Assembly (NCBI GenBank): GCA_963669175.1
Contig: OY769902.1
Coordinates: 4,320,001 to 4,384,000, forward strand
Direction of reading: 5' to 3'
Source: a bacterium
Lineage (GTDB): Bacteria > Electryoneota > Electryoneia > Electryoneales > Electryoneaceae
Length of the DNA: 64,000 nt
In this document: positions 45,145 through 49,630 of the stretch, piece after piece
Layout: each line of letters opens with the position of its first letter
Position numbering within the stretch: position 1 is the first letter of the stretch
The notes under the pieces: model-generated
What the model saw: only the letters and a program-made list of their open reading frames with translations
Databases searched by the model: none
Told to the model about the DNA's origin: nothing
Made by a program: the position numbers and the translations under genes

Positions 45145-45214
45145 GAATTAGGAATTAGGAATTAGGAATTAGGAATTAGGAATTAAGAATTAAGAATTAG
45201 GAATTAGGAATTAA
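45145..45214. repeat. Heptamer tandem repeat (GAATTAG/GAATTAA) x10
   Basis: Counted directly. Confidence 0.95.
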
Positions 45215-45252
45215 ACAGTTTTACATACATACTGTTGCATAACAAGTTTTGA

Positions 45253-45341
45253 TTGTATTGTATTGTATTGTATACCATTCTATCCTGTGATATGCCTGTG
45301 ATATGCCTGTAATTTACCTTTAATTTACCTTTAATTTACCC
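45253..45341. repeat. Adjacent microsatellites: ATTGT x4, CCTGTGATATG x2.5, AATTTACCTTT x2.7
   Basis: Seen directly. Confidence 0.85.
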
Positions 45342-45372
45342 CTGCTTGCTTACAAGCAGGGGTAATTTTTTT
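45336..45372 (+). terminator. Intrinsic terminator
   Basis: TTACCCCTGCTTG-CTTA-CAAGCAGGGGTAA followed by a T run. Confidence 0.75.
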
Positions 45373-45630
45373 CTGAAAATGGATTTTCATTTATAGCTTT
45401 CAACAACACAATTGTCAGCCAGGGTGGCCTGATCCGCATGTGATGCAACTTCCATTATCGCTACGGCAGAAATACTCTTGCCTTATCAGGATTCAAGCCA
45501 GTCCTCATGAGCGCATCAGGACAAGGCGTTGTATTCCAGAAAATGATCTCACGATCTTTCCCTGTCCATCAGGTCGCCTGTTTCACTTACTATTAGGAAA
45601 TATTTCCGGTAGGTTTTCAGTTGATAGTGG

Positions 45631-46461
45631 TTACTTTTTCTTGTCCTTTTTCGTTGTATCTTTTTGTTTATCTTTAGGTTTAAGGTCAGGATGATACTGC
45701 ATCACCAGTTTCTGATATTGGACCACTGTACTACGTCCGAGTCCGGTAGTACGCACAATTTCCATCAGATTAAGTTCTTTGACCATCAGGAACTTGATGT
45801 TTTTGTAAGATCGCAAGTAACGACCCACCGCTTCAAGGGTATGCGTGGTCAAGCGAGCGATATCCGGTTCCGGATAGCCCTGTTCGTACAGGTCAATGAT
45901 TGCGGCCTTGTGTGTGGGACGGCTTCCCTGGTCCAACATGATTCCTTTCGTCGGCAGGATGTCATCATGCGTTTCGTGATACTGTTGGATGTACTTGCCA
46001 ATGGTCGTCAGCGACCGGTTCAACAACACACTCAATTCCGCGCCGCTTAATAACCCGCCTTGTTCGTACGCGCTTTTCACCAACCGCGCCAGCACTGCAA
46101 TATCCCTGTCGCGCTGTTTGCCCGCACCGTCTTTTCCATAGTGGCGACGAATACGATCAACCACATCTTCTTCAGTGACAAGCGGAAGAATGACGGTCTT
46201 CACCTCATAGTCTTCTACCCGTGTCCCATAGCTGGGCTTGTGGCACTGTGCACCTGTCGTACGCCACACAATACTGCCACCGCTGCGTTGCTCGATATCC
46301 GGATAGAACTCACGGTGCAGTTGCATGATGTCATCCGCCACCATGGCCAAGACCTTGTGGCTGCCAAGAATCTTGTACTGCTCTTCCAACAACCGGATGA
46401 TCGCAGTGCGAAAGTTCCGCTTCGGCAGGGATTCATAACGGTTCCGTACCTCAGTTTTCAT
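45631..46461 (-). CDS. DUF1670-like HTH protein 2
   Basis: ARLVKSAYEQGGLLS..EL..LL..S..TI, PTKG..LDQG..PTHK and IARLTTHTLEAVGRY; start MKTEV after GGAGG. Confidence 0.8.
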   Translation of the reverse strand: MKTEVRNRYESLPKRNFRTAIIRLLEEQYKILGSHKVLAMVADDIMQLHREFYPDIEQRSGGSIVWRTTGAQCHKPSYGTRVEDYEVKTVILPLVTEEDVVDRIRRHYGKDGAGKQRDRDIAVLARLVKSAYEQGGLLSGAELSVLLNRSLTTIGKYIQQYHETHDDILPTKGIMLDQGSRPTHKAAIIDLYEQGYPEPDIARLTTHTLEAVGRYLRSYKNIKFLMVKELNLMEIVRTTGLGRSTVVQYQKLVMQYHPDLKPKDKQKDTTKKDKKK

Positions 46462-47284
46462 GGACGCCTCCGCCACCTTGTCCCGCTCTTTTTTTTGAGG
46501 GATACTGTGCTTGCAACTGCTCCAGAAGTTCGACATAGCTTGTCGGCCAGTGATCACCCTGTTTGTATTTTGCAAACAGATCCAGGTACTCACCCGTCAA
46601 CCGTTCGCTCTGTTGAAGCAGACGGCTCAGGTCGGTCAGCTCGGTAATGTCATGGCTAAGCAGAAGCAACAAGCGTCCAAACGTACTCACATAGCGCTTG
46701 ATCGCAAACGCGCTGTGACGTGTCAGACGGATGATCTCATCATAGGTCCGGCCACCCAGGTACAAATCAACGATCCGTGCCTTGTGCGATAACCCACGCC
46801 CAATGTCATGGTCGTAGCCACGCGTATGCACCGTATTCCCGTCAGCAAGCAGCAACGCAATATCCTTGCGGATGGTCCGATCTGAAACGTGCAGCAGACG
46901 ACTCAGATCCTCCTGTGTCAGCAACCCACCCTGCTGGTACGTCTCTTCGGTTAGCCGAAGAATCCGTTGCTGACGAAGCGATGAAGCGCCCAGTTCGCGC
47001 AGAACATCCAAGTCCTCAACACCGTCATCCAGTGTCAGTTCGACACGAATCAGGTCTTGTTCGCGTAAGGGACGACCGTGACGAGCTTTCTTGGACGCAC
47101 ATAAAAAACGAAGCTTGCCAAGCGTTGACGGCATCGTACCGAACAAACAACGCTTGGCAAGCTCCAATATCCCCGTACTCGCAGCCGGTGAAAGCTCAAA
47201 CTCGCGACGAAGCGAGTTCACAAACACCTGCTCCGGCGTCTTCTCCATACACCGGTCATACAGGCTCGTTGAAGTATGTAACAT
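46451..47284 (-). CDS. DUF1670-like HTH protein 1
   Basis: RLTEETYQQGGLLTQEDLSRLLHVSDRTIRKDI, TRG..HDIGRGLSHK and TRHS..AIKRY; start MLHTS after GGAGGA. Confidence 0.8.
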   Translation of the reverse strand: MLHTSTSLYDRCMEKTPEQVFVNSLRREFELSPAASTGILELAKRCLFGTMPSTLGKLRFLCASKKARHGRPLREQDLIRVELTLDDGVEDLDVLRELGASSLRQQRILRLTEETYQQGGLLTQEDLSRLLHVSDRTIRKDIALLLADGNTVHTRGYDHDIGRGLSHKARIVDLYLGGRTYDEIIRLTRHSAFAIKRYVSTFGRLLLLLSHDITELTDLSRLLQQSERLTGEYLDLFAKYKQGDHWPTSYVELLEQLQAQYPSKKRAGQGGGGVHEN

Positions 47285-47383
47285 CTTGTCCTCCAGCATG
47301 TTACGCGATCGCTTCCGATTGCCAACCCGAATACAAAGGTCGCAAACAAGAAGCAAATCGCCAAACCTACCGGAAGTATTTCC

Positions 47384-49630
47384 TTATTTTAACAATATAA
47401 TTTTTCTGGTAAAAGTTTGTTTACGATAATCTATTTGAAGAAAGTAGGTGCCGCTGGCAAGATTGGGAGCTTCAGAATCAGTATTGAAAGTCCACCTGTT
47501 TTCGCCGGAAAGATAGTATTCTCCTGTTGAATACACCTGTTCACCCAGAATATTATATAGATTCATGGTTACAAAGCCTGATTCTGGAAGAGAGAAAACA
47601 ATAGTAACAGTAGAGTTAAATGGATTCGGGTAAATATCTGTCAATGCAAAAGTCGCAGGCACGTTGAAAGATAATTCATTGTCAATATTATCAAGATCAT
47701 ATGTGTAATATATAGCTATTCCGTCTGTAAAAGATGAGTTATAAATAATATTATTTGAACAATATATTCCAGCTGCACCCATTGGATAGTCAGGCAAGTA
47801 GTAGCCAAGTTTATTATAATGCATACTATCATCAAATTCCAATATGTAAATTGTATAATAATCTCGTATATTGGCTGACACACCAGCCATATACATTTTA
47901 TTTTCATACATAATCATATCATGTATTACTAATATACTATCAATACAAGCTTCTTCTGTAATATATTCACCATCATTACTATTTATTCTGGATATTTTTA
48001 TATATGGGTTATCATATGGATAATGTACGCAATATATAAAACCATTAGATGTATCAATATTACTGAACAATCCTTCTATGGGAATTTGTTCCGTAAAGAC
48101 CGGCAATACAGGATTACTGATATCATAAACAGCAATTCCTGAATCGTTTGCACAATAGGCAGTTGAATCAAGTATCGCATGAACAGCTTGCGGTTGGTCC
48201 ATTATGGTCAAACACTCCGGATTAGATGGATCGGAGACATCCATAATGGCTAACTGGTTGATTCCGGTCGTCACATAGATGTAGTCGCCAATCCCTTGAA
48301 TGAAACCGTTTGATCCGATGGGCTCTTCTGGGGCTGACAACAACTGGGGGTGGACAGGATCGCTGACATCGAAAATCAGTAATGGATGCGTCAAGTACAG
48401 AAAACCAGAATAGATTTGTGGAATACTTACTGTCATTAAATCTTCAATATGCAGATAATTTACAACTTCCGGAGCAGCGGGATCCGAAACGTCAAGTATC
48501 CAAAGATCCTTTGTTGCATCAACAGCGTATAGAATCGTATCCAGAATAGCCAGATCATAGATCGCATAAGGCGCAGCAAAATAGCCAATCTCATGGACCA
48601 GGTTCGGGTCGGTTATATCGAAACAACGTACCCCTCTTCGGTCATCACTGATATACGCAATATCATCTTCTACACTTAGTTGCGAGGCTCGATAGAACAC
48701 TGGATTCATGGTAAACAGACTGTCAGGCATGGTTGGATCGCTGATATCAAGAGCAAGCATTCCCTTGGAATGACCATAAATGTCTTCAGACAGGCCGATA
48801 AAGGCCAGCGTATCATAAATGTCAATTTGCCAGGCAATATAATTCAGGCAGTATTCGGCTAATTCAACCGGGTTCAGCGGATTACGAATATCGTACGATT
48901 TTACTATTGTAGAGTCGCCCATCCAACAGGTCAGCCAGGCAACACTGTCCTTGATGGCAATTTCCCGGACATCTTCCAAGGCGATGGTTGACACGGCATG
49001 AGGCACTGATGGATCACTGACATCAACCACCTTACAGCCGGAATCTTCCGCAGTAACAAATAGATAATCGCCCAACACATCAATACAACTGACTGTCGCA
49101 CAAAATGGGCCAAGATAATAACCGATTTGCGTTGGATTTGCTGGATCAACAATATCAACAATAACTGTTTCACGATCACTTTGCATGAACAGTAGCGAAT
49201 CCTGCAGGATAATTCTATCAAGATTGCCGTTGAACAGAATATGGCCGATTAGCGCGATATCAGAAGGATTGCTGACGTTGAAGATGTATAAACCTGGTAC
49301 AGTTGCCATATCATCATTGGCAAACACGGCATAAGCCAGAGAATCCCGCACCACAACATCCTTGCAAGTGGCATCGCAGATAAACGAGTCCAGTTCAGTG
49401 GGGTTGGTCGGGTCGGAGACATCCAGAACACGCAGGCCGGTCCAGTAGGTGGCGACACAGGCAATGTCATCCTGTACATCCAACCCGAAAGCAAAGCTCC
49501 AGTTGTGATGCACCTGTGACAGCAGGCTGACATTCAAGCTGTCCTGACCGAATGACAACAGCGGACAGAATAATAAAAGTATCATCACGTATCTGAATAA
49601 AACCTTCATCCGTTCGATCCTTCCGTGCAT
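47384..49630 (-). CDS. Secreted LVIVD-repeat protein with C-terminal sorting domain
   Basis: More than 10 (L/I)(V/L)D(V/I)S(D/N)P..P repeats; YPNPFN...RKIILLK. Confidence 0.88.
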   Translation of the reverse strand: MHGRIERMKVLFRYVMILLLFCPLLSFGQDSLNVSLLSQVHHNWSFAFGLDVQDDIACVATYWTGLRVLDVSDPTNPTELDSFICDATCKDVVVRDSLAYAVFANDDMATVPGLYIFNVSNPSDIALIGHILFNGNLDRIILQDSLLFMQSDRETVIVDIVDPANPTQIGYYLGPFCATVSCIDVLGDYLFVTAEDSGCKVVDVSDPSVPHAVSTIALEDVREIAIKDSVAWLTCWMGDSTIVKSYDIRNPLNPVELAEYCLNYIAWQIDIYDTLAFIGLSEDIYGHSKGMLALDISDPTMPDSLFTMNPVFYRASQLSVEDDIAYISDDRRGVRCFDITDPNLVHEIGYFAAPYAIYDLAILDTILYAVDATKDLWILDVSDPAAPEVVNYLHIEDLMTVSIPQIYSGFLYLTHPLLIFDVSDPVHPQLLSAPEEPIGSNGFIQGIGDYIYVTTGINQLAIMDVSDPSNPECLTIMDQPQAVHAILDSTAYCANDSGIAVYDISNPVLPVFTEQIPIEGLFSNIDTSNGFIYCVHYPYDNPYIKISRINSNDGEYITEEACIDSILVIHDMIMYENKMYMAGVSANIRDYYTIYILEFDDSMHYNKLGYYLPDYPMGAAGIYCSNNIIYNSSFTDGIAIYYTYDLDNIDNELSFNVPATFALTDIYPNPFNSTVTIVFSLPESGFVTMNLYNILGEQVYSTGEYYLSGENRWTFNTDSEAPNLASGTYFLQIDYRKQTFTRKIILLK

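Follow-up and report, generated by a model that had tools for sequence, protein, structure and literature searches.

The comparison of insertion junctions indicates that a small mobile element in the genome of an Electryoneaceae bacterium places itself inside the last codon of genes whose products carry a type IX secretion system (T9SS) sorting domain. The genome is a single 5.45-Mb contig with 50% G+C, and the element was found in a 64,000-nucleotide stretch of it, the window, whose numbering is used below. The element is 1799 bp long, carries two genes only, both of the DUF1670 family (PF07900), and follows a gene for an LVIVD-repeat protein. Judged from the sequences on either side, insertion is site- and orientation-specific. 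It occurs after the second base of the last sense codon, which is Lys (AAR) or, more rarely, Arg (CGN/AGR), and the element itself supplies the third codon base and a new stop, which leaves the host protein unchanged. This anatomy and this targeting, taken alone, can be regarded as nearly certain. The wider statement, that the element is an autonomous site-specific insertion sequence (IS) of an undescribed family in which the DUF1670 pair serves as recombinase, is probable when taken as a whole, self-encoded catalysis included.

The evidence comes from elements gathered in a scan of one genome per species (29 loci), in a metagenome scan (80 loci) and from the copies in this genome; junction counts cover the 82 elements with both junctions complete. 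All 82 share one layout. Read in the direction of the element genes, the last codon of the host gene (NNN) plus TA is followed by AGGAAnnnnTTCCGGTAGG ... CCTACCGGAAnnnnTTCCT, a 6-nt spacer, a hexamer and then unrelated DNA. The spacer is lineage-specific (AATAGT 35, AAACGT 24, AATAGA 10, others 13) and identical in all seven near-identical copies of this genome, and in 80 of the 82 the distal hexamer consists of a Lys or Arg codon and a stop. When the proximal and distal copies of codon and stop are set side by side, their first two bases agree in 81 of 82 elements, and mismatches fall at position 3 (24), 5 (14), 6 (40), 1 (1) and 4 (1); the differences are synonymous, for instance AAA/AAG, CGA/CGT, AGA/AGG or TAA/TAG/TGA. 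In L039, the two junctions read CG and AG. The four proximal bases after the common dinucleotide are ATAA in 78 elements, ATGA in 2 and ATAG in 2, and codon class and stop are restored in 82/82. Both copies are Lys in 75 elements and Arg in 6, and the two classes are never crossed. In L097 and L098, which belong to one lineage and both lie in Arg (CGN) codons, the outermost repeat base is G, not A, so that the restored stop is TAG.

Native gene ends show which copy belongs to the host. A profile built from the target domains recovered 326 sorting-domain-like gene ends in this genome, 9 with an element end and 317 unoccupied. The unoccupied ends read AAGTA (107), AAATA (87), AAGTG (30), AGGTA (16), AAATG (15) and others, and their last residue is Lys in 239 and Arg in 64. 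By comparison, the proximal pentanucleotide is AAATA in 8/8 elements here versus 87/317 unoccupied ends (P about 3e-5). The distal hexamers are AAATAG (four times), AAGTGA (twice) and AAGTAG (once) in the seven near-identical copies, and AAATAG (four), AAGTAG (two) and AAGTGA (two) in the eight full elements of the genome, a spread that resembles native ends. Because the proximal copy is an invariant AAATA and the distal copies vary as native ends do, the distal hexamer is, by this comparison, the native gene end, and the proximal bases after the dinucleotide come with the element. On the same grounds, the LVIVD gene originally ended ...TTG TTA AAG TGA.

The copy in the window has the following parts, where gene direction refers to the minus strand, on which the element genes lie.

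45583-45588, minus strand: AAG TGA, the host gene's original last codon and stop, shifted downstream when the element inserted.
45587-45588: the 2-nt repeat in its distal copy (TT, which is AA on the minus strand), within the native hexamer.
45589-47387: the element proper, 1799 bp, as delimited by the junction comparison.
45589-45594, minus strand: element-borne 6-nt spacer AATAGT outside the inverted repeat, which includes the left TATT.
45595-45616: 3'-end inverted repeat (gene orientation), AGGAAATATTTCCGGTAGGTTT, made up of the palindromic 12-mer GGAAATATTTCC and then GGTAGG.
45631-46461, minus strand: open reading frame (ORF) B, 276 aa, DUF1670 (Pfam E 1.4e-48).
46451-47284, minus strand: ORF-A, 277 aa, DUF1670 paralogue (Pfam E 2.3e-45).
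47285-47362, minus strand: 5' untranslated leader; here the ACCGGA(A/G)G motif has a degenerate form.
47363-47384: 5'-end inverted repeat (gene orientation), whose outermost base is the third base of the host's new stop.
47385-47387, minus strand: element-borne ATA, which provides the third base of the host's last codon and the TA of the new stop.
47388-47389, minus strand: AA, the 2-nt repeat in its proximal copy, with which the host Lys codon starts.
47384-49630, minus strand: host gene for a 748-aa LVIVD-repeat protein with a C-terminal T9SS sorting domain, ending ...RKIILLK.

In gene direction, the order is host ...NNN-AA / ATA-(22-bp repeat)-leader-ORF-A-ORF-B-(22-bp repeat)-AATAGT / AA-G-TGA-downstream. 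The end of ORF-A overlaps the start of ORF-B by 11 nt, and ORF-B has GGAGG six nt upstream of its ATG. The start of ORF-A was set at the ATG 100 nt from the element end on the basis of 18 other elements, in which this ATG (where an ATG-started ORF-A is listed) lies about 79-107 nt from the end.

A sequence-only reading had drawn the anatomy differently, as a 1790-bp IS bounded by 22-bp inverted repeats and a 4-bp TATT target duplication. The repeats, with their one mismatch, are indeed present at 45595-45616 and 47363-47384, and TATT does flank them in this copy (45591-45594 and 47385-47388). Further copies, which that reading expected to carry different 4-bp duplications, were found as well, but TATT is identical at all seven, within flanks that are themselves conserved ([CT][TC]A[CT]TTAC before TATT on the left, TATTT on the right). 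Sister lineages have AAAC where this genome's element has AATA, and lineages with the AAACGT spacer are flanked by AAAC and AATA. Since TATT is the same at all seven copies and missing in sister lineages, it is element sequence and not a target duplication. The gene end, which had been reconstructed as LLK-TAG-TAA, is given by the junction comparison as AAG TGA. Furthermore, the empty site that this anatomy predicts, AYTTACTATTT, is essentially absent from the genome, occurring once and not at the end of a secretion-tag gene; AAATAGTAA occurs 40 times, almost never at sorting-domain gene ends. Set against insertions that are non-random and lie at T9SS gene ends, the 1790-bp anatomy without a target preference can hardly be right.

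The choice of target is consistent within this genome and beyond it. Specifically, 8/8 full elements here follow a gene with a PF18962 match in the last 100 aa (E 3e-5 to 1.5e-12, the latter for the LVIVD protein), and seven of these eight matches exceed the curated cut-off of 27 bits. Among the 74 elements with at least seven readable upstream residues, the host protein ends in K-M-x-L-L-K/R in 72 (70 by a crude pattern and two, L035 and L094, by eye); L038 and L131 lack this end and have the AA dinucleotide at both junctions nonetheless. At every junction where the host end is readable, host gene and element genes share a strand, and the host frame leads into the element. The base profile of occupied sites is the coding end of the sorting domain, AAR AAR ATG NTN YTN NTN AAR TRR, with nothing conserved past the stop, and comparing occupied with unoccupied sorting-domain ends brought out no clear additional DNA signal. 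A separate observation concerns the far side of the stop, where 9 of the 13 downstream flanks examined carry a near-palindromic 12-mer, TRTCAWATGAYN (for example TATCATATGATA), directly after the native stop and then diverge. The carriers (L021, L028, L068, L073, L074, L075, L095, L096 and L099) come from different assemblies and include none of this genome's copies; the 12-mer might serve as a further recognition element, or might mark where a different element using these sites ends.

Going by the labels of genome bins, the two-gene unit with the same ends is spread over no fewer than six phyla or candidate phyla. Bins with the element are labelled Ignavibacteriaceae, Melioribacteraceae, Bacteroidota, KSB1, Neomarinimicrobiota, Caldithrix and Fibrobacteres, with one Lentisphaeria bin in addition, and most of these groups we take to be users of type IX secretion. 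Closer to home the distribution is patchy, with the family in only 2 others of 60 relatives of this genome, though fragmented assemblies lose repeats. DUF1670 genes also occur in archaea, and Methanosarcina acetivorans gave a match in the control set.

The element is mobile and has multiplied recently, as indicated by seven near-identical copies, a more distant cousin and two end remnants. The seven full copies lie at unrelated loci with different outer flanks and differ by 0-4 substitutions per 1790 bp, and the feature cannot be put down to chance. The cousin, L008, is 67% identical to the element, has both genes intact and shows GTTTC on its left flank where the seven copies have TATT. One remnant, L009 (G000:C1:2071034-2071185), is a 152-bp fragment with 78% identity to the 5' end of the element; the preceding gene ends ...LAMNK, without the look of a sorting domain, and AAGTA, not AAATA, stands before the repeat of this decayed relative. 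The other remnant lies at G000:C1:800634, where a sorting-domain gene (...QKLVLVK) ends in AAATA and is followed by the first 15 nt of the element end only; beyond them comes unrelated DNA with AAAGTT-type short repeats, and the site looks like the scar of a deleted copy. A search of the rest of the genome for the element repeats (18-mer, at most 3 mismatches) returned the 14 ends of the seven copies, one L008 end, L009 and 13 isolated single matches, with no other place at which the repeats are paired. That the repeats flank nothing else in the genome argues against a separate master element here, a possibility raised earlier in the form of a known IS whose transposase lies elsewhere. Additionally, the public-run contigs with the locus include one of 1803 nt that covers 45587-47389, and in the related sample X4 a contig runs from the left flank across the left end of the element. 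No public RNA run containing the locus is listed, and a tblastn search against plasmids gave no match.

The two proteins are, as the sequence-only reading had recognized, overlapping DUF1670 paralogues, with PF07900 scores of 165.6 bits for ORF-B and 155.1 bits for ORF-A at a curated cut-off of 25 bits. They share 33% identity over 132 aa, and their profiles align globally with a probability of 98.9%, in an alignment from which one fusion protein was left out. Beyond DUF1670, Pfam and NCBIfam find helix-turn-helix (HTH) families only, including in Pfam weak matches of the HTH_23/28/29 type and a sub-threshold match to the resolvase HTH_7. No function for DUF1670/PF07900 was found in annotations, Pfam, NCBIfam or the literature searched, where neither family name appears in any of 8.4 million texts, in agreement with the earlier remark that none had been assigned; the names used in public sources are 'hypothetical', 'DUF1670', 'biotin operon repressor' and 'CsgD regulator', and never transposase. 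At E<=1e-3, ORF-B has more than 1600 homologues, and 469 were found for ORF-A; the best 120 of each are 63-100% identical and mostly lie on contigs of 1-2.5 kb, a length expected where an assembly stops at a repeat. Among 1.84 billion representatives clustered at 50% identity, relatives form 931 clusters at E<=1e-3 and 64 at E<=1e-30. Of 79 elements, 70 have the two reading frames intact and one has them fused, and comparison with the cousin gives dN/dS values of 0.22 for ORF-A and 0.09 for ORF-B, synonymous sites being saturated against more distant elements.

Several observations bear on how the two proteins might cooperate. Four long relatives (P0274, P0276, P0283 and P0293; 930-952 aa) contain three DUF1670 stretches each, and in six others (P0350, P0381, P0383, P0384, P0386 and P0388; 414-437 aa) DUF1670 stands behind about 200 residues that match no family; on this evidence, the module seems to work in multiples. 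In a few elements, ORF-A and ORF-B are fused into one frame of 485-535 aa (L024 2694-4301; P0121-P0123), which is consistent with two proteins acting together. Structure prediction, in turn, gave the A-B pair a contact score of 0.35 versus 0.00 for the best control, with at least 57% of contacts shared between runs and a partner pLDDT of at least 65. The 0.35 mark is reached by 58/80 solved complexes and 2/110 mismatched pairs, and with scores of at most 0.60 by only 7/80 solved complexes and both of the mismatches that pass; the prediction lends weak support to an A-B contact.

The AlphaFold2 model of ORF-B (pLDDT 73.9) contains an N-terminal helix-helix-hairpin-helix part (residues 1-110) and three HTH or winged-helix units; apart from helices, it shows only a two-strand hairpin. 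Database comparisons return the same picture, with HTH matches only in PHROGs, one weak match to a WYL model over the HTH stretch in PADLOC, and clusters of the HTH_23 type only, at no more than 0.81, in the ESM Atlas. A winged-helix match to Topo VI-A (Z 5.9) was dropped, as it tied with many unrelated HTH rows. The residues invariant in both paralogues, T-[KR]-G..D.G...[ST]-H-K, L-Y, H and R-Y, are found in the second HTH unit and in, or close to, the linker that joins it to the first; that T-[KR]-G..D.G...[ST]-H-K, L-Y and R-Y are active-site residues is speculation, and they may be named as candidates.

On the main reading, these proteins would carry out the chemistry themselves. In favor of an autonomous element whose DUF1670 pair is the recombinase, the sequence data point to self-sufficiency: there are two genes only, they are mostly intact and under purifying selection, and the repeats flank nothing else in the genome. 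Several results weigh against it. No DDE, HUH, serine- or tyrosine-recombinase family was found in Pfam or NCBIfam at E<=1, as had been noted from the sequence, and the Pfam scan gave no match to PF00239 (at E<=1) or PF00589. A catalytic domain or fold was not recognized in Pfam, NCBIfam, PDB profile, Foldseek or structural searches. Specifically, the PDB profile search had 0 matches, Foldseek against the PDB returned nothing at E<=1e-3, a wide structural search returned only HTH matches with Z<=6.4, within the tool's stated noise range, and the N-terminal domain modelled alone reached a pLDDT of 53 and was unusable. Furthermore, we infer movement from the copies, and no empty site, excision product or circle junction was seen. 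A DNA search with the 3' part of the host gene found no orthologue of it in 40 relatives (short weak matches only), no contig from public runs with the locus joins across the element, and neither the genome nor any element locus examined contains a circle or tandem junction.

A rival account is mobilization in trans, in which DUF1670 recognizes the ends and the target, or regulates, while a host or unlinked enzyme, for instance a recombinase of the chromosome or a transposase from another locus, breaks and joins the DNA. Both proteins do look like pure DNA binders, with three HTH units and a small N-terminal part without a recognized catalytic fold. A helper of this kind would, however, have to be universal, given that, by the bin labels, the two-gene unit is found in at least six phyla or candidate phyla. 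No other element in the genome has the same repeats, both genes are intact and under purifying selection in most copies, and no partner or other catalytic domain, only DUF1670 and HTH, was found in the 3 longer homologues, all of them A-B fusions, and 10 long representatives (of 150 listed) that were scanned. Mobilization in trans is thus rather unlikely. The stronger statement about the proteins is that DUF1670 is a previously unrecognized class of recombinase or transposase, composed of tandem HTH units and a small alpha/beta domain without the known catalytic folds (RNase H/DDE, serine, tyrosine, HUH, DEDD), which would act as an A/B hetero-oligomer in a 2-nt-staggered, sequence-guided exchange in the last codon of T9SS substrate genes. 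This can be put forward tentatively, as a serious possibility that falls short of being probable.

The ends of the element offer hints at how it is recognized. The 12-mer GGAAnnnnTTCC at each end is a perfect palindrome in 46/82 elements at the 5' end and 48/82 at the 3' end, and is one pair short in 31 and 31. Its center co-varies (AATT, ATAT, GATC, GTAC), and in two elements a palindrome arm is changed on both sides (GGCAATATTGCC and GGACATGTGTCC). As single strands, the end hairpins fold at -1.3 to -2.0 kcal/mol (z -0.16 to -0.46), no better than shuffles. Because single-strand folding is so weak, GGAAnnnnTTCC is read as a putative two-fold symmetric protein site and not as a hairpin. A mechanism through single-strand hairpins is unlikely, given the weak folding and the lack of a replication-strand bias, with 3 insertions on the leading and 5 on the lagging strand (small n); the same weak hairpins and strand counts, together with the absence of an HUH family, set the element apart from IS200/IS605. 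In most relatives, alignment by eye shows two more copies of the inner repeat segment, CCGGTAGG, in the leader, in the form ACCGGA(A/G)G, and one of these copies covers the ribosome-binding site, a pattern that suggests several binding sites and possible autoregulation.

Searches for further signals in and around the element gave little. One consensus-like promoter match lies in the leader (47325-47298), and the region total of 8 is near the 4.9 +/- 2.1 of shuffles, so that a promoter belonging to the element was rejected. Rfam returned two chance-level matches far below the gathering score and no RNA family, and a conserved antisense third gene was rejected, as the longest opposite-strand frame varies from 71 to 300 aa (median 127). 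To the left of the element, 45146-45330 is intergenic DNA dense with short tandem repeats (about nine copies of a 7-nt unit, GGAATTA/AGAATTA; TTGTA four times; an 11-nt unit twice; TAATTTACCTT three times), followed by a strong terminator-like hairpin at 45336-45365. Genome-wide, 20-mers from the heptamer array are found 43-51 times, and run contigs cover the stretch at a very high summed depth.

The data are best explained by a model in which the two DUF1670 paralogues, each with an N-terminal alpha/beta part and three HTH units, would act together, bind the GGAAnnnnTTCC and CCGGTAGG repeats at both ends, find the target through the conserved coding end of the sorting domain, and break and join DNA with a 2-nt stagger. 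In a conservative version of this model, the element would be excised as a circle with its repeats 11 bp apart (AATAGT-AA-ATA), and would exchange strands reciprocally at a dinucleotide that must match the target. This version is the one preferred, although it stays somewhat short of an even chance. It fits the position of the repeats, which are subterminal and stand at unequal distances from the exchange point (3 and 6 nt), and the clustering of CG and AG insertions, non-AA dinucleotides being clustered by lineage (1/59 versus 5/13, Fisher P 5e-4), a contrast confounded by host and shared descent. Against it stand a target that is one-sided, with no conservation past the stop, unlike a two-armed recombinase site, and L039 with its CG and AG at the two junctions. 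An overlap of 6-8 bp as made by tyrosine recombinases was excluded, because junction identity is limited to 2 nt.

Ordinary transposition would explain the junctions differently, through a 2-nt staggered target cut and repair that yields a true 2-bp target-site duplication, as known from IS630/Tc1-mariner elements, without exchange from a circle. The identical 2-nt repeat that flanks 81/82 elements is what such a cut would leave, the proximal dinucleotide would follow the codon class (Lys 75, Arg 6, crossed 0) with no need for homology, and conservation of the target on one side of the exchange point only is readily accommodated. Yet the inverted repeats are not terminal and lie 3 and 6 nt inside the ends, non-AA sites occur in few lineages and not at the approximately 20% expected from native ends, and no domain of the DDE type was found (Pfam, NCBIfam, ORF-B model). 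Such a duplication is a possible account of the junctions, somewhat less likely than exchange from a circle.

A comparison with known systems helps to place the element. Like IS in general, it has inverted repeats and near-identical copies at unrelated loci. With IS630/Tc1-mariner elements it shares short length, inverted repeats, a 2-nt junction repeat and tandem HTH units (HTH_23/28/29 type, weak in Pfam). Those elements, however, rely on a single protein with a DDE/D domain, duplicate TA and carry their repeats at the very tips, whereas here there are two HTH-only paralogues, a dinucleotide AA, CG or AG inside a codon, and a strict specificity for gene end and orientation. Serine-recombinase elements (IS607, large serine integrases, invertases) resemble it in their 2-nt exchange point, in oriented integration and in the inverted binding sites that flank a short spacer in the inferred circle. 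A 2-nt crossover as the sole common sequence, which is typical of them, is seen in 81/82 elements and is not diagnostic alone; the element differs in having no resolvase-type domain, an off-center exchange point and no second conserved target arm. Tn7 with TnsD at attTn7 (the 3' end of glmS) and the integrases at tRNA 3' ends follow a similar safe-harbor logic, in that they likewise recognize a gene end, insert in one orientation and leave the product intact, and islands in tRNA genes similarly replace the displaced gene end with their own copy. Unlike the element, these systems use a single genomic site and enzymes that are known (DDE plus TnsA, or tyrosine integrases), as against a target motif at about 326 gene ends and a replacement of only 4 nt. 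IS110/IS1111 elements, finally, are alike in that they enter a repeated sequence at a fixed site and in a fixed orientation, share a very short core at the junctions and leave no classical duplication, but they have a transposase of the DEDD type, and IS110 proper lacks terminal inverted repeats; no gene for a DEDD-type transposase was found in the element (ORF list, Pfam, NCBIfam).

On the testable features, the element falls outside the compared families (IS630/Tc1-mariner, serine-recombinase, IS1111-type, and Tn7/tRNA integrases). The best NCBIfam IS-family model, IS21, reaches 12.8 bits against a cut-off of 160 and over the HTH stretch only, and the literature searched contained nothing relevant on IS at T9SS gene stop codons or on an HTH-only IS family without DDE. 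Set apart from catalogued families by the NCBIfam models, this looks like a new IS family with a new target logic, and the chance that the enzyme belongs to a categorically new kind is substantial. The proposal of a new mobile family is supported for an element that is multi-copy, widespread with the same ends and unmatched by IS models; the targeting of the last codon of T9SS genes had been missed.

Whatever the chemistry, the coding end of a protein-sorting signal serves as a safe landing site that is available at hundreds of gene ends per genome, and the element can multiply without inactivating genes because the split codon and stop are repaired. In turn, this targeting ties the host range of the element to bacteria with type IX secretion. 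In metagenomes, the element also causes assemblies to break and annotations to go wrong at T9SS genes. Precise, oriented and scar-free insertion at a short definable motif is, furthermore, of interest to those who engineer genomes of Bacteroidota and related phyla. Should the DUF1670 pair prove to be the enzyme, a new protein class would join the few known among DNA transposases and recombinases, and a widespread Pfam family with 931 clusters at 50% identity would gain a function.

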